Part shown: positions 2,448 to 63,709 of the stretch, in pieces
How positions within the stretch are numbered: position 1 is the first letter of the stretch
How the letters are laid out: every line of letters begins with the position of its first letter
From: Shigella phage KRT47
Length of the DNA stretch: 64,000 nt
Strand: one strand, 5' to 3'
Sequence record: MN781580
Made by a program: the position numbers and the translations under genes
The notes under the pieces: model-generated
Seen by the model: only the letters and a program-made list of their open reading frames with translations
What the model was told of the DNA's origin: nothing
Database searches by the model: none

Positions 2448-4264
2448 TACTGGCTCATCCATTCTTTACGAAGGTCAGCATTATCTCCCATGAGCATTTC
2501 AAAAAGCTCTTTCCAATTCTCAGGAAGTTTAACAACATCATATACTGGATTTTGAATCATCTCACGATATTCAGATTTTTCCAAAGAGCCAAGTCCTTTA
2601 ATATAACGGATGCTATGTTTAGGTAGAGCATCTTTGGCACTCTCATATTCAGCGACTGTATAAAACCATTCTTGTTTTTTACCGACCTGAGCGATGATTA
2701 CAGGAGTTTTGACAAAGCGAATTCGTCCTTGCTCAAACAGTTCTGGCCAATTACTAAAAAATCCAAGAAGAGAAGGATAAATGCTTCCTAAACCATCATG
2801 GTCAGCATCGGTCATAATAGCAATATTATGATAATTCAAGTTTTCAGCTTTTTCACCAAGAACTAATCCAGTGATTGCGCAAATATCAAATAGTTCTTTG
2901 TTTTTAAGCATATCAGCATATGACATACCCCAACTGTTGAGAACTTTACCACGCAATGGATAACCACCGTGAAGTTCTTTATCACGAACATCAATAAGAT
3001 ATCCGATAGCCGAATCACCCTCGGTTAAGAACAATGTAGTATCAGCATCTTTACCGCACAGATTAGCTTTAATATGTTTATGAACCTTTGCCTTAGAAGC
3101 CTTTTTAGCTGCTTTAGTTTCAGCTGCTTTTTCTGCTGCCAATTTACGAGCTAGTGCAGCTTCAATAATTGGCATTAAAATTGCTTCATTATTTAAAATA
3201 GCGCGTGAAATCTTTTTAGCGTCAAGTTGAATATGACTACGGATTTCACCAAATGGAGAAGTCAAACGCTCTTTAGTTTGAGAATCAAATCGCATGTTTT
3301 TCATATCACGGACAAACATAACGATAGTCAAACATTCTTTGACACGTGCTTTAGTTACATCAATTTTGAACTTACGTTTGATTTGTGGAATAAGGTCTTC
3401 ACAAATATCATCCATAACACAGTCAATGTGATGGCCACCATTCTTAGTGTGAATGTTATTCACATAAGTTAATTGGCGAAATCCATCCGGTGAACGACCA
3501 ACCGCAATAGAACAATTTTCTTGTTCTTGAACAATAGCATGTTCATCATACTGTCGTGCATATTTCTTAAAATTGCCCTGAACCTTTTTACCATTAAAGG
3601 TAAATTGAATATCAGGATAAACAACAGCAAGTGTCTGGAGACGATCTAGTGTAATGTCAAGATAAACTTGGGACAGCTCATTAGTTTCAAATGACATAAA
3701 ATCTGGAATGAAAGTAACACGAGTTCCTTTCCATTTTCCAGGAATAGTTTCCCAGGATTTATTTTCCATGCCATTTGAACAACGAACTACAATATTATTT
3801 TGACCATCGCCAGTTTCACCGACAAACATCACAGAAAAAATGTTAGTTAAACTAGAACCAACACCATTCATACCACCGGTGACACGTTCTTTATCATCAC
3901 CAAAGTTACCACCCGCTTTTGGAATAGTCCAAGCAGCAACTGGACCAGGAATTTCTTCACCGGTAGGTGTTTTAACCATCGCTTGTGGAATACCGCGACC
4001 GTTATCTTCAACTGTTACCTGATTATTTTTAATGGTAACATTAATTTTATTCGCGAATTTAAACTTAGTACGAATACCTTCATCGACTGAGTTATCGATA
4101 ATTTCATCAATAAGCTTAACAAGACCAGGTACATACTGAACACTTTCCCATTTACCAAACAGAAAGCGCTCATGCATTTCATTAGCAGAAGAGCCAATGT
4201 ACATGCCACTACGCTTTTTGATATGTTCAATATCGCTCAGAATTTTAATTTCATTCTTAATCAT
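2447..4264 (-). CDS. 39: DNA topoisomerase II large subunit, uninterrupted GyrB-like protein (GHKL ATPase + TOPRIM), 605 aa
   Basis: GHKL ATPase motifs N-terminal, TOPRIM-like EGDSA motif C-terminal; ATG at 4262-4264 (track start is an upstream GTG). Confidence 0.9.
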   Translation of the reverse strand: MIKNEIKILSDIEHIKKRSGMYIGSSANEMHERFLFGKWESVQYVPGLVKLIDEIIDNSVDEGIRTKFKFANKINVTIKNNQVTVEDNGRGIPQAMVKTPTGEEIPGPVAAWTIPKAGGNFGDDKERVTGGMNGVGSSLTNIFSVMFVGETGDGQNNIVVRCSNGMENKSWETIPGKWKGTRVTFIPDFMSFETNELSQVYLDITLDRLQTLAVVYPDIQFTFNGKKVQGNFKKYARQYDEHAIVQEQENCSIAVGRSPDGFRQLTYVNNIHTKNGGHHIDCVMDDICEDLIPQIKRKFKIDVTKARVKECLTIVMFVRDMKNMRFDSQTKERLTSPFGEIRSHIQLDAKKISRAILNNEAILMPIIEAALARKLAAEKAAETKAAKKASKAKVHKHIKANLCGKDADTTLFLTEGDSAIGYLIDVRDKELHGGYPLRGKVLNSWGMSYADMLKNKELFDICAITGLVLGEKAENLNYHNIAIMTDADHDGLGSIYPSLLGFFSNWPELFEQGRIRFVKTPVIIAQVGKKQEWFYTVAEYESAKDALPKHSIRYIKGLGSLEKSEYREMIQNPVYDVVKLPENWKELFEMLMGDNADLRKEWMSQ

Positions 4265-18199: not shown

Positions 18200-18364
18200 T
18201 TACTCTTCTTTTTCTTTAGATTCCTCTTTTTTCTTTTTAGGAATCTGTTCAGGGCCTTTATTTACTACAGCGCCTGACGTTGTTCCAGTAGAGATATTTT
18301 CAGGATTACCACCTGAATCTCCAGCGACCATATCTTCTTTGATAAATTCTTTATATGTTTTCAT
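18200..18364 (-). CDS. Small protein, 54 aa, with capsid-targeting-sequence-like N-terminus MKTYKEFIKE (not in ORF track)
   Basis: Hand-translated; GAGGT SD; N-terminus parallels the MKTY(Q/K)EFI(A/T)E start of the two internal-protein genes at 61845-62652. Confidence 0.5.
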   Translation of the reverse strand: MKTYKEFIKEDMVAGDSGGNPENISTGTTSGAVVNKGPEQIPKKKKEESKEKEE

Positions 18365-22878: not shown

Positions 22879-23721
22879 TTAATCAACTGCTATTGGATGA
22901 ATAGCATTAAACTTATGAAATGCTTCTGATTTTTCTTTACGCGAAACACACATGCGAAGAACCTTTAGTGGTTCATCTTCTTCACCCAACGATTTTCGTT
23001 TTTCAATATTAGAAGTTTTCCAACGAGCTTGCTCTGGAAACTCTCTATTGATTTGCTCAAGCGCTCTATTATGTTTAGAATTACTGCGAATTGAACTGCA
23101 CCCGCCAGGAGCTTGTGCTTTTCCAGATACAACCAGATATTTGAACAAGGCCAAATGCGGATAACCTTGATTAATTAAATTGAGAAATGCATACATATCT
23201 TCGCATAAATCAATTTTTCCATACCCAATTTGTTCTGTCGTAAGTTTTCCAAGGTCATACCATGTATTCGTGAATCCATATGAATTTTCACGATAATTAC
23301 CCCAAGATGAAGTAATTTTAAAAATAGGTAGACGAGCATGGCCATGATAATACCCACAATCCATGGCATCCTCAACATATTGAATCAATTCATAGAACTG
23401 TTCACGAGTCAATTGATTGACTTTATCCACACAACGACGATCATCTCTTTTTCGCATTGAACTCATACGAATAGTAGTATCATCGTCAATCATCCAGATT
23501 CGTTGACCTGCATACATATCAGTAATTGCTTTACGAGTACCAGCAATTCCATTTACATCATCAGGAATAGTTATAATTTTAGCTCTAGACCCATAGGCAT
23601 CATAATAAGCTTTTTCTTCATGTTCACGCACTACAATATGGGGTTCATAATCAGTCGGAAACATATCAAGGGCAGAAACTGCCCCGACACGCTGATAACT
23701 TGGAATTACGAATTGAATCAT
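22879..23721 (-). CDS. GT-A glycosyltransferase, 280 aa; likely HMC-glucose glucosyltransferase of the T2/T6 beta-alpha type
   Basis: DxD-type motif IDDDTTI; occupies the locus where T4 has the 351-aa beta-gt; ATGA overlap with gene 42. Confidence 0.55.
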   Translation of the reverse strand: MIQFVIPSYQRVGAVSALDMFPTDYEPHIVVREHEEKAYYDAYGSRAKIITIPDDVNGIAGTRKAITDMYAGQRIWMIDDDTTIRMSSMRKRDDRRCVDKVNQLTREQFYELIQYVEDAMDCGYYHGHARLPIFKITSSWGNYRENSYGFTNTWYDLGKLTTEQIGYGKIDLCEDMYAFLNLINQGYPHLALFKYLVVSGKAQAPGGCSSIRSNSKHNRALEQINREFPEQARWKTSNIEKRKSLGEEDEPLKVLRMCVSRKEKSEAFHKFNAIHPIAVD

Positions 23722-24458
23722 TTCCACTCACCTTTATAGTCTTTTTTCACAATATGAGTTTCGCCAGTATTCCACCAATGATCAACCAAGTAAAAATGAC
23801 GAGAATATACATGAAGACTTCCAACATTCCATATAATAGAACCTGCTTTATACTGACGAGTTGAATCGCCTGCATTCAAATCAGATACTAATTTATCTAA
23901 TACGTATTTTTGCCATGCATAATCATTACGGAATCCGAAGACCACGTCATTTGAGCGCATGCTTACTACTGCATTGACTTTCTTATCACGAATCAGGTAC
24001 TGTACTGTATTAGTACACATGAAATCTGACATACCATCTTTATTGTAGTCAAATTGCATGGATGGACGAGTATAAATCATGATACCACGTCGAGAATCAG
24101 GATTTTGACCAAGTTCAGCTAAACACATATCATACTGGGCATAGTTATCTTCTGACCAAATAGCCCAACCATAATTCGAGTTAATTTCGCCTTTAGAAGA
24201 TGCTACCTGCTGCCAAATCTTTGGTGTTTCGCCTGGAATATCTTTAACAAACAAGCTCTTAGATTTATACCATTCAAGTTCACGCTGAATGTATTCATCA
24301 TTAAGAGCGCCAAAAATAAAGGGTTCATCTGCTACAAATGATGCGCCAATAATTTCAATAGTTTTAACGCCAGTTTTATCAACTACGAAATCTTTTTCCT
24401 TTAATGCAGTTCCCAAATAAAAACGGATTTCTTCAACTGTCATAGAGTCATTAATCAT
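23718..24458 (-). CDS. 42: dCMP hydroxymethylase, 246 aa
   Basis: Length and sequence consistent with T4 gp42; ATG at 24456-24458 with GAGGT SD. Confidence 0.85.
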   Translation of the reverse strand: MINDSMTVEEIRFYLGTALKEKDFVVDKTGVKTIEIIGASFVADEPFIFGALNDEYIQRELEWYKSKSLFVKDIPGETPKIWQQVASSKGEINSNYGWAIWSEDNYAQYDMCLAELGQNPDSRRGIMIYTRPSMQFDYNKDGMSDFMCTNTVQYLIRDKKVNAVVSMRSNDVVFGFRNDYAWQKYVLDKLVSDLNAGDSTRQYKAGSIIWNVGSLHVYSRHFYLVDHWWNTGETHIVKKDYKGEWK

Positions 24459-35360: not shown

Positions 35361-36561
35361 ATTTTGTAATAATGTCAAACTGTTCTTTAAAGCAGAAGCT
35401 TGAATCTTGATGCTGATACAAAAATTCATATGCTTTTTCTCGCTCACGGTCATAAAGAGTTCGGTCAGATGACAGTTCTTTAATACGTTCAAATGTTGAT
35501 TCCATATCATTTTCATCAAACCAAATGATACCGCTATCATGCGAGGTCAAAGGAGTATTATCAACACGGAATTTTAAATTTTCGCCAGTAGATTTCCAAA
35601 ATACCGGAATTGTTCCACATGCACCAAGCTCGAGATGAGTATATTCTAAAGAACGTTGTAGATATTTTTTATCCAACTTACTCAGCTGATAACCAAATCC
35701 GGATTTACTCATGCGTTCAAGCATTTCGCTATTTACATAACGGTCGAGAATTTGCGTTGGCAAATTAGGAGCAATTTTAATTTGGTCTACTTGATGAAGA
35801 CGATAATACTCGTATGGAATTCCTTTTTCTTTAATAGGAATGAACGCTGGAGAACGTTCCAGACCTTCCATAATAGTACTTAGTCCTGCAGGTTTAAGAT
35901 GTTTTTCGTGAAAATCAAACATCTGATAAAAACCTTTCCATGTAGTCGTACGACCAATCCAACGGTTGATATTCATGTTAATTTCAGAAACATCTTTCCA
36001 GTAGGTTGATCGAACCTTCGCAATATCCATAGGAGGCTGAAAGTTATATATGGTCGGTGCTTCTTCAATATCATCAAACAGAGAAACAGTTTCTGGATAC
36101 CACTCTTTCATCAGAACTTTATTAAAATCACCATTATCAGAATGGCTAAAAATAACATCAGCTCGACGAACAGTTTCTTCTAATCCCAAATTTCGACGCA
36201 AAGAAAGAGAAGAATGGTCATGCTGATAAACTACAACACGAACCGAAGGTTTAATGTTATCAATAATTTTTTTATAGTTATTAATAGTGTCTTCTTCAAC
36301 CGAAGTAGCAGGAACTGAATTGATAATTAGAATATCACAATCATTTACCAGCTTAAGTGTTTTATCATATTCTTTTGCCAATAAAACCGGAATTGAAAAT
36401 GATTTATAATCATGCGCGCAATTACGAGTAAATGATTTATCTTTAGCATAAACCAAAGTCACTTCATGACCATTTTTAATAAACCAATCACGTTGCTCGA
36501 GTGAGAATTTTGTTACACCACAACCTTCAAGACCTCGAGCCATAAAAATACATACTTTCAT
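35359..36561 (-). CDS. a-gt: DNA alpha-glucosyltransferase, 400 aa
   Basis: 400 aa; N-terminus MKVCIFMARGLEGCGVTKF... close to T4 alpha-gt as recalled. Confidence 0.85.
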   Translation of the reverse strand: MKVCIFMARGLEGCGVTKFSLEQRDWFIKNGHEVTLVYAKDKSFTRNCAHDYKSFSIPVLLAKEYDKTLKLVNDCDILIINSVPATSVEEDTINNYKKIIDNIKPSVRVVVYQHDHSSLSLRRNLGLEETVRRADVIFSHSDNGDFNKVLMKEWYPETVSLFDDIEEAPTIYNFQPPMDIAKVRSTYWKDVSEINMNINRWIGRTTTWKGFYQMFDFHEKHLKPAGLSTIMEGLERSPAFIPIKEKGIPYEYYRLHQVDQIKIAPNLPTQILDRYVNSEMLERMSKSGFGYQLSKLDKKYLQRSLEYTHLELGACGTIPVFWKSTGENLKFRVDNTPLTSHDSGIIWFDENDMESTFERIKELSSDRTLYDREREKAYEFLYQHQDSSFCFKEQFDIITK

Positions 36562-60835: not shown

Positions 60836-61165
60836 TCAATTAGAAAATAAATTTATCCAAGATTGTTCTTTAATTAAAAATGGCTCAGAATCATATGCCA
60901 TTAAACTTTGGGTGATTAGTCCTTTAAAAGGTCCATCAATAAATTCCATGGTAAAATATGGAATTTTATTCATTAATCTTGCATTAGGAGCAGTGCACAA
61001 AACTCTGCATCCTTTGAATACGCCTTTTTGTAATTTGTATTGCTTGGGATAAAATTCGCTCAAAATGTTATTATTTGCCAAAATTTCAAAATGATTCACC
61101 AATTTATTTTTAATAGTTTTTGGCGAAAAATAAAGATATTCGAAAAGCTGTGTGTCTGTCATCAT
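60836..61165 (-). CDS. Hypothetical protein, 109 aa
   Basis: ATG at 61163-61165, ATGA overlap. Confidence 0.5.
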
Positions 61166-61704
61166 TGCATTCCAATCACAAAAAATTGAGGACGAACTGT
61201 TTCACCTGTTTCAGCATTATAGCTTCGACAACAGTGTTGCACAGTTTCAATATGAATATCGTAAATTTTATCCATATCAGGAGATTTGACAGGCTCATCA
61301 ATTATATACAAAATTCGCGAAAGCGATAAACCTCTGAACTTGCTTCCTTTATTACCAATAAAACTGCGCACAGAATCAGTAAATAAACGAAAACGTATAT
61401 CATCATTAGAATAACGCGAAAATTCCTTTTTAATGTTATTTGCAGAAATTTTAGCGTAAGCTGAAGTATTAGAAAGAACGATAACTGTTCCGCCATCATA
61501 CAACCAATTAGCAGCAAAGTTAGTCACAGCAATTGATTTACCGGATTGACGTCCACCATCTAGTCGAAGTGTGCAATACTGTTTAAGTAATTCTTCAAAT
61601 GGCGGGATATATTCGTTTTTACAAATTTCTTCTACTCTAGCATCAGAATGGTGTGTAAAAGCATTCATCAGGGATAGATAAGGACCAGTTAAAAATGTTC
61701 TCAT
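61162..61704 (-). CDS. Small P-loop NTPase, 180 aa
   Basis: Walker A GGRQSGKS; ATG at 61702-61704. Confidence 0.55.
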   Translation of the reverse strand: MRTFLTGPYLSLMNAFTHHSDARVEEICKNEYIPPFEELLKQYCTLRLDGGRQSGKSIAVTNFAANWLYDGGTVIVLSNTSAYAKISANNIKKEFSRYSNDDIRFRLFTDSVRSFIGNKGSKFRGLSLSRILYIIDEPVKSPDMDKIYDIHIETVQHCCRSYNAETGETVRPQFFVIGMQ

Positions 61705-61844
61705 TTCTTCTCTCTAAGTTTGGGCCATTCCATGGCGCATGAATTGTCCATTTCTGTATTTACCCATTACCGCACTCAGGCTCGACCTTATTACAGGTTG
61801 GCGGGAATCCCTCACAGAATCATGAGGTCCAGGTTGTTCCCATA

Positions 61845-62318
61845 TTATTTGAACGATTTAACGTACTGAATAGAACCTTTACTATTTACAAAGGCAATTT
61901 TACCATTTTTATTATACATGGTAGCAGTACGTTGATAGCCATAAGTTTGTTTACCAGATTGATAACCAACTAATGCAAAATTATCTTCACCCATTTTATT
62001 CTGTTTAGCGCGAATGCGTTCATGACCATGTGCCATAAGAACCTTAGCGTCGCCAGTTGCAATGGATCTACGAGTTTTTTCATCTTCAACTGTATTAACA
62101 AAGTCGTCAAATGAATCAAATTTAGCATGAGATTTATTATACAGTTTTCCATCTACTGCATAATTATATCCCTGTACATCCATCTCAACTTCTGTACCAT
62201 CATCCAATACAGCAGTGATTTTTTGACCTTTTTTAAATTTCAAAAGATCAGTAAAAGATTCAGCAATAATTTGAGAATTAATAGCTGCTTCAGTAATAAA
62301 TTCTTGATATGTTTTCAT
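61845..62318 (-). CDS. Internal (capsid-packaged) protein with capsid-targeting sequence, 157 aa
   Basis: N-terminus MKTYQEFITE matches the T4 internal-protein targeting sequence; position next to e. Confidence 0.65.
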   Translation of the reverse strand: MKTYQEFITEAAINSQIIAESFTDLLKFKKGQKITAVLDDGTEVEMDVQGYNYAVDGKLYNKSHAKFDSFDDFVNTVEDEKTRRSIATGDAKVLMAHGHERIRAKQNKMGEDNFALVGYQSGKQTYGYQRTATMYNKNGKIAFVNSKGSIQYVKSFK

Positions 62319-62334
62319 GTGTATCCTTTAATTT

Positions 62335-62652
62335 TTATTCTTTAGGGAAGTTTTTAGAATATGCATCATAAAGCTTATTTCCAATACGGCGGAAAACTCT
62401 AGCAGCAAAACGATTTTCTGGGTTTTTAATCATGATTTGCATCATATAAGTACCCGCGTCAGAAAGAGCTTCTTCATAGTACCCGTTAATTTCTTTAAGA
62501 GTCCTACGTTTACCACCAGGACCATCAACAGTGATTTTCCATTTACCTGTAGAAGTGCGACTTGGCGGCTCAACTTGTTCAATCCAGATATAACCGCCTT
62601 CTACACGTTGTCCTGCAGCAGATTCTGCAATAAATTCTTTATACGTTTTCAT
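62335..62652 (-). CDS. Internal (capsid-packaged) protein with capsid-targeting sequence, 105 aa
   Basis: N-terminus MKTYKEFIAE; basic protein. Confidence 0.65.
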   Translation of the reverse strand: MKTYKEFIAESAAGQRVEGGYIWIEQVEPPSRTSTGKWKITVDGPGGKRRTLKEINGYYEEALSDAGTYMMQIMIKNPENRFAARVFRRIGNKLYDAYSKNFPKE

Positions 62653-62706
62653 GTGTTTCCTTTAAATATTTTAATTAGTAATTTATCTATTCAAGTAACT
62701 GTGAAT

Positions 62707-62736
62707 ATACTATCACAATTCCAAGAGAAAGTAAAC
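62707..62736 (-). promoter_or_regulatory. Possible early promoter (-35 GTTTAC, weak -10)
   Basis: Minus-strand GTTTAC at 62731-62736; -10 region TAGTAT/TATATT is imperfect. Confidence 0.35.
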
Positions 62737-62740
62737 AACT

Positions 62741-63709
<969 letters not shown>

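Follow-up and report, generated by a model that had tools for sequence, protein, structure and literature searches.

The interval between the lysozyme gene e and vs.8 of Shigella phage KRT47 holds two adjacent minus-strand reading frames, one of 105 aa followed by one of 157 aa, which are identified here as ip10 and ip4, two alleles of the internal protein (Ip) cassette system of T-even phages. By analogy with characterised members of this system, it is likely that both products are packaged, injected into the host and active there as inhibitors of restriction or of another first-response defence. The analysis covered a stretch of 64,000 nucleotides (the window, Table 1) from what is a Tequatrovirus, and the last 20 kb of it are about 95-96% identical to the closest relatives in the comparison collection. 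A preliminary description of this DNA had pointed to two genes beside e whose products start with MKTYQEFITE and MKTYKEFIAE, and both were recovered as open reading frames next to the 164-aa e. It had also remarked that proteins of 157 and 105 aa do not match the sizes of T4 IPIII and IPII. This is correct, since the T4 reference lists ipIII with 193 aa and ipII with 100 aa, and the mismatch in size is therefore real. The interpretation of the locus as IPIII and IPII differing in size had to be abandoned, as the two genes are other, long-named alleles. Ip4 and Ip10 are already known, named, deposited and widespread.

Table 1. Features of the e-vs.8 locus and related genes in the window, with positions counted from the first nucleotide of the window.
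Feature	Position	Strand	Basis or remark
vs.8 homologue, 180 aa; downstream conserved flank	61162..61704	-	PHROG 1488
Spacer between ip4 and vs.8, 140 nt	61705..61844	-	homologue of the additional 5' part of the longer vs.8 ORF in T4
ip4 (ipIV) gene, 157 aa: capsid-targeting sequence (CTS) MKTYQEFITE and cargo	61845..62318	-	ORF list, DUF7412, PHROG 3155
Ip4 N-terminal 20 codons: CTS (I8-T9-E10) and second predicted gp21 site (I18-A19-E20)	62259..62318	-	L/I-x-E motifs
54-nt direct repeat, copy 1: 5' end of ip4 with its Shine-Dalgarno site and CTS codons	62283..62336	.	repeat search
ip10 gene, 105 aa: CTS MKTYKEFIAE and basic 95-aa cargo	62335..62652	-	ORF list, PHROG 3966
54-nt direct repeat, copy 2: 5' end of ip10 with its Shine-Dalgarno site and CTS codons	62617..62670	.	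repeat search
Ip10 CTS, ten codons; I8-A9-E10 fits the gp21 protease motif L/I-x-E	62623..62652	-	sequence, alignment
e-ip10 spacer	62653..62740	-	common to the T4 e-ipIII spacer; AAAGGA ribosome site; GTTTAC...TAGTAT/TATATT stretch
Lysozyme gene e, 164 aa, T4-type; upstream conserved flank	62741..63235	-	Pfam Phage_lysozyme
Pair of TATAAATA motifs, the T4 late-promoter consensus, close upstream of e	63249..63269	-	exact matches
Glucosylation-related genes, including gp42 and alpha-gt	22879-23727, 23718-24458, 35362-36561	- (all)
beta-glucosyl-HMC-alpha-glucosyltransferase, 282 aa, in the uvsX/gene 42 slot, replacing T4 beta-gt		-	PHROG 842, E 2e-89

The 157-aa protein can be firmly assigned to the catalogued Ip4 (IpIV) of T-even phages. 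It matches Pfam DUF7412 from end to end (residues 1-157, E 5.7e-96) as well as PHROG 3155 'internal virion protein' (E 6e-102). Exactly this sequence is carried by 459 public contigs, phage T2 among them. This exact sequence carries the UniRef name 'IpIV internal head protein' (T2), near members of the cluster go by 'Ip4' or 'Internal head protein 4', and copies annotated Ip4 or ipIV occur in RB51, Shfl2, S16, GiZh and others. With the CTS left out, 470 phage records were found to contain the cargo, at 99% identity or more in 291 cases, and relatives that are about 61-72% identical are present in Salmonella, Klebsiella, Raoultella and Serratia phages. The T2 protein is identical to that of the window over its full length, and the genes differ at 8 nucleotides, all synonymous; across T2, PP01, SH7 and teqsoen there are 8-12 nucleotide differences each, every one of them synonymous. 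The family alignment contains 49 invariant positions, including D47, H64, D79, D90, H99, E111 and D112, and these residues lie in the conserved blocks GYNYAVDGKLYNKSHAKF, LMAHGHERI and NKxGEDNFAL.

With equal firmness, homology assigns the 105-aa protein to the catalogued Ip10, which was first deposited from phage Pol. The match to PHROG 3966 has an E-value of 5.8e-34, and the protein is 98% identical over 97 residues to Ip10 of phage Pol (CAA84455.1). Its exact sequence occurs on 42 public contigs, and in PP01 the equivalent gene is annotated as 'ip10' and its neighbour as ipIV, in the same order. The cargo, 100% identical to that of PP01 ip10, was detected in 189 phage records including RB69, with relatives from Enterobacter and Cronobacter phages about 50% identical; Ip10 of SP18 is 70% identical to the protein of the window, and VR20 is also listed among the Ip10 phages. 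For ip10, the differences amount to 2-12 synonymous changes and only one that alters the protein, K5Q, which lies within the CTS: PP01 and SH7 have Gln at CTS position 5 where the window has Lys, with no other difference in the protein. As the differences in ip4 and ip10 are near-exclusively synonymous, both genes are under purifying selection. The preliminary description had named identity to known internal proteins as the outcome that would overturn it, and this is essentially what was found, Ip4 being T2 IpIV and Ip10 nearly the protein of phage Pol.

Shortened forms of Ip10 were also encountered. RB69 ORF124c (positions 1971-2243 of the compared stretch) encodes a homologue of 90 aa whose tblastn match falls into two pieces, and a metagenomic variant of 68 aa (P0017) diverges past residue ~45, as if frameshifted. 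These two cases suggest that ip10 is decaying in some lineages.

When both proteins were compared with T4 IPII and IPIII by BLASTP, a convincing alignment was obtained only over residues 1-12 or 1-14, with 9-10 residues matching, that is, over the CTS. The longest alignment, between Ip4 and IPII (31% over 77 residues, with 9 gaps), is carried by the common N-terminus, and neither protein was found to have a PHROG or Pfam family in common with IPII or IPIII beyond matches limited to that terminus. With only the CTS aligning, and with blastn homology to T4 stopping at the CTS-coding region, the possibility of size variants of IPIII and IPII was rejected. In the records of SH7 (positions 3146-3953 of the compared stretch) and Sf25 (MF327009), Ip4 and Ip10 are labelled internal head protein II and III or the reverse, and one UniRef cluster of Ip10 is named 'IpII internal head protein'. 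The labels in the SH7 and Sf25 records are, judging from these alignments, mislabels. The practical value of the present analysis lies in correct annotation, as ip10 and ip4 and not as ipIII and ipII, which are the names used in some GenBank records.

The two genes are embedded in conserved flanks. Gene e is 97% identical to T4 e at the nucleotide level, and the vs.8 product is 89.5% identical to T4 Vs.8, the same gene being annotated vs.8 in PP01. In blastn comparisons with T4, homology runs unbroken from vs.8 through the spacer to 61845 and is picked up again at 62613, from where it continues through the e-ip spacer and e. Between these two points only two stretches of ~45 nt match T4, corresponding to the ribosome site and the CTS start of ipII and ipIII. 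The 140-nt gap between ip4 and vs.8, which is G+C-richer, was considered as a small RNA and as a remnant of denV. Both possibilities were rejected: its fold is no better than that of shuffled sequences (z -0.03), no Rfam family matches, and it is homologous to the stretch by which the vs.8 ORF of T4 is longer at its 5' end, not to an element of its own. Within this gap (61705-61815, minus strand), the N-terminal 41 residues annotated in T4 Vs.8 fall outside the open reading frame of the window. Compared with T4, there is a GTG in place of the ATG, a 9-nt deletion and an in-frame TAG, so that vs.8 begins at an internal Met and encodes 180 aa. The 180-aa form is also annotated in PP01, SH7 and teqsoen, and the long T4 form of 219 aa may be either specific to T4 or an over-extended annotation.

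The T4 reference has the gene order e, ipIII, ipII, denV, vs.8. The product of denV is endonuclease V, a pyrimidine-dimer glycosylase. A tblastn search of the whole 64-kb window with T4 DenV found no denV (best E-value 1.5), neither at the two places where it would be expected (61705-61844 and 62653-62740) nor elsewhere, and the gene is likewise missing from the e-vs.8 locus of PP01 and SH7, where the order e, ip10, ip4, vs.8 is found as it is in others. Elsewhere the position of denV varies: it lies between ipII and vs.8 in T4 and between e and ip10 in teqsoen and many others. In RB69 the slot contains denV and the truncated Ip10 homologue along with two further genes annotated 'internal head protein'. 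The interval between e and vs.8 is a variable slot, occupied in T4 by ipIII, ipII and denV and here by ip10 and ip4.

A 54-nt direct repeat covers the start of each ip gene. Its two copies are 83% identical to each other and align with the beginnings of ipII and ipIII in T4, and the breakpoints of homology with both T4 and T2 coincide with it. The T2 locus equals that of the window minus the ip10 cargo between the two repeats; in T2, ip4 directly follows e, whereas in the window ip10 intervenes. The repeat marks recombination breakpoints, and the pattern is that of the exchange of cassettes which earlier work on T-even phages reported at their two variable IP loci. Cassette polymorphism of these loci is treated in a 2010 paper, which cites Repoila et al. 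(1994) and Comeau et al. (2007), and polymorphism of the locus has been described since 1994. The window brings no new allele and no new arrangement.

Both proteins begin with a capsid-targeting decapeptide. All 64 kb were scanned in six frames with the pattern MK-x-[YF]-x-[ED]-F-[ILMV]-x-E, and the three matches obtained all lie at ORF starts, namely those of ip4, ip10 and a 61.1 homologue; the occurrences are not due to chance. The decapeptide, the L/I-x-E motif at residue 10 and the e/denV/vs.8 locus are all present, placing the two proteins in the CTS-bearing T-even Ip family. The motif at Glu10 is conserved in both family alignments, and in that of Ip10 E10 is invariant while position 8 is I or L. 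In Ip4, E20 of the second motif is nearly invariant and lies in an N-terminal helix modelled with low confidence. The only other L/I-x-E motif of Ip10 is at Glu54, where cutting is unlikely because this residue lies in a predicted beta-strand and is replaced by Asp in most homologues.

From established T4 biology, the CTS would direct Ip4 and Ip10 into the scaffolding core of the prohead, where the gp21 prohead protease would cut it off after Glu10 (I-x-E) and, in Ip4, probably cut after Glu20 as well. The predicted mature forms are of 147 or 137 aa for Ip4 (pI 9.1-9.3) and 95 aa for Ip10 (pI 9.6), in a pI range like that of T4 IPII and IPIII (about 9.6). Such basic proteins would be expected to stay with the packaged DNA and to enter the cell alongside it. 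It has been reported that the CTS suffices to package foreign proteins into the phage head (PMC3012670, PMC9391042). A literature search for virion proteomics papers naming Ip4 found none.

The third CTS-like sequence, MKTYKEFIKE, opens a 61.1 homologue of 54 aa (18200-18364, minus strand) located just upstream of the primase gene 61. This protein is 96% identical to T4 61.1, which starts MKTFKEFIKE, and it is conserved in about 1,400 T4-like phage records. Its residues 2-38 align with residues 57-93 of the T4 major capsid protein gp23 (43% identity, pairwise E 4e-9), a region that spans the gp21 cleavage site (LTE|AEIGG). The 61.1 homologue therefore resembles a reduced copy, or a mimic, of the gp23 propeptide junction and N-arm.

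Regarding expression, the e-ip10 spacer has a mean column identity of 96% in an alignment of the window, T4 and PP01, and this conservation extends through the ATG into the first ten codons. The GTTTAC...TAGTAT/TATATT stretch in this spacer, read by eye, resembles a T4 early promoter as a pattern match only, and it was not flagged in a sigma-70 scan. Elements based on T4 early promoters have been described at the IP loci by Arbiol et al. The ip10/ip4 intergenic spacer is 16 nt long and carries an AAGGA ribosome site. Upstream of e, the exact minus-strand matches to TATAAATA are at 63249-63256 and 63262-63269, the motif not being enriched across the window overall, and the pair is a possible source of late read-through transcripts over e, ip10 and ip4. 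No terminator-like sites were found in 61600-62800, and promoter and terminator scans inside the locus gave nothing above shuffle expectation.

AF2 models of the two proteins (pLDDT 73 for Ip4 and 84 for Ip10) depict small alpha+beta domains, suggesting compact folded domains and not disordered polycations. A Foldseek search against BFVD returned the family of Ip10 itself as the sole match and none with an enzyme-like fold, sequence and profile searches of the PDB with Ip4 and Ip10 gave nothing significant, and the model comparisons revealed no link of either protein to T4 Ip1-3, known inhibitors or any enzyme family. As modelled, both folds are orphans. Several weak matches were considered and dismissed. 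Homology to CsgH or filamin was rejected, with the Pfam CsgH match (E 0.089) and the PDB filamin and CsgH matches (E 0.14-0.36) below threshold, as was the NCBIfam name 'curli synthesis inhibitor' for Ip4 (E 0.002, 17 bits against a 300-bit cutoff). In an exhaustive HMMER search, Ip10 further matched repeat units of very large proteins whose Pfam domains include filamin/Ig-like, RTX and CBM60, and these matches were rejected as homology; an Ig-type relationship is discounted because the matches are below threshold and the confident Ip10 model is alpha+beta and not an Ig sandwich.

The basic character of the proteins raises the question of a mainly structural role, in which Ip4 and Ip10 would neutralise charge and help to condense or eject the DNA with no specific host target. 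The pI of 9.1-9.6 of the mature forms would suit such a role, a review describes contacts between internal-protein lysines and DNA phosphates (PMC3012670), and Ip4 is strongly conserved across genera. Furthermore, 'ip4-10' came out of a published test with no GmrSD target: Silas et al. reported no reproducible inhibition by it of GmrSD variants active on T-even phages, where the match to the sequences of the window is by name only. Nonetheless, T4 Ip1, Ip2 and Ip3 are equally basic and yet each has a specific nuclease target, and compact folded domains are predicted for both proteins. The genes also show presence/absence polymorphism, and with T2 devoid of ip10 and T4 of both ip10 and ip4, neither gene can be needed for head function. 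A mainly structural role is consequently considered improbable.

The preferred reading, that of injected inhibitors of restriction or of another first-response defence, draws on what is known of other internal proteins. Each of T4 Ip1, Ip2 and Ip3 blocks a GmrSD type IV nuclease of its own without cross-protection (PMC12373910), and Ip3 is required for infection of strain ECOR17 (PMC9391042). McrBC is inhibited by Bas37_0260, a CTS protein whose gene lies at the ipI locus of Bas37 (bioRxiv 10.1101/2025.11.20.689424). These reports uphold the earlier statement that injected internal proteins are anti-restriction effectors. Host immunity encounters the internal proteins before any other phage product, and since type IV restriction targets are now known for all three T4 examples, every allele without an assignment is a candidate anti-defence factor. 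By analogy, Ip4 and Ip10 would act in the cell as stoichiometric inhibitors of modification-dependent (type IV) nucleases or of another first-response defence. The preliminary description had further proposed that variant cargo at this locus may be directed at different host defences. The cargo does differ from that of IPIII and IPII, and with Ip1-3 blocking GmrSD variants and Bas37_0260 blocking McrBC the idea fits published work; the alleles themselves had already been catalogued. The names Ip4 and Ip10 are decades old, and the proteins are found in hundreds of sequenced phages and have been included in at least one functional screen.

The DNA of the phage would offer a suitable substrate for such nucleases. 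The gp42 (dCMP hydroxymethylase) of the window is 95.5% identical, and its alpha-gt 91% identical, to the T4 counterparts. Together with the beta-alpha-glucosyltransferase, they imply that the DNA should be glucosyl-hmC, a substrate of type IV nucleases. The content of the slot between uvsX and gene 42 indicates DNA glucosylation of the T2/T6 type, and tblastn detected no match to the T4 homing endonucleases segA and mobB in the window.

Two points speak against nuclease inhibition. One is the result of Silas et al. with 'ip4-10', and the other is a conservation of Ip4 (61-71% identity across Salmonella, Klebsiella and Serratia phages) that would be unusual in an inhibitor engaged in an arms race. 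This conservation and the 49 invariant residues could instead reflect a conserved target or a catalytic role. In the catalytic case, Ip4 would be an injected enzyme and not a binding inhibitor, and would modify nucleic acid or some component of the host as infection begins. The invariant positions, which include His, Asp and Glu and persist among homologues that are 61-71% identical, are consistent with this, as are the spread over several genera of T4-like phages and the purely synonymous evolution among Tequatrovirus copies; still, searches of Pfam, NCBIfam and PDB sequences gave no match to any enzyme family and the model is of moderate confidence only (pLDDT 73), and an enzymatic Ip4 is regarded as very improbable. 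A broader alternative, itself rather unlikely, is that Ip4 is no strain-specific nuclease inhibitor of the T4 Ip1-3 kind but an injected effector with either a conserved host target or a catalytic activity, and that Ip10 counters a defence so far unconnected with internal proteins. It was put forward because of the identity of Ip4 across T2, PP01, SH7 and teqsoen, the residues invariant over four genera and the orphan fold. The target of Ip10 would then perhaps be a defence specific for the gentiobiosyl-hmC DNA that this beta-alpha-gt phage should make.

Compared with known systems, the proposed inhibition of a first-response defence by Ip4 and Ip10 has its parallels in the other internal proteins. 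T4 IPIII (Ip3) inhibits GmrSD(ECOR17) and IPII (Ip2) inhibits GmrSD(ECOR21). Ip4 and Ip10 resemble these two in their locus beside e, upstream spacer, CTS with I-x-E motif, size class and basic pI, and presumably follow the same route into the cell. They differ from them in length (105 and 157 aa against 193 and 100 aa) and in cargo, which shows no detectable similarity past residue 14. T4 IPI* (Ip1), the inhibitor of GmrSD(CT596) with an NMR structure, is similar in having a CTS, in being processed and injected, and in forming a small compact alpha+beta domain. Bas37_0260 is a non-T4 Ip allele with only the N-terminal signal in common that blocks a type IV system other than GmrSD, and it is encoded at the ipI locus, whereas Ip4 and Ip10 are encoded at the e-vs.8 locus.
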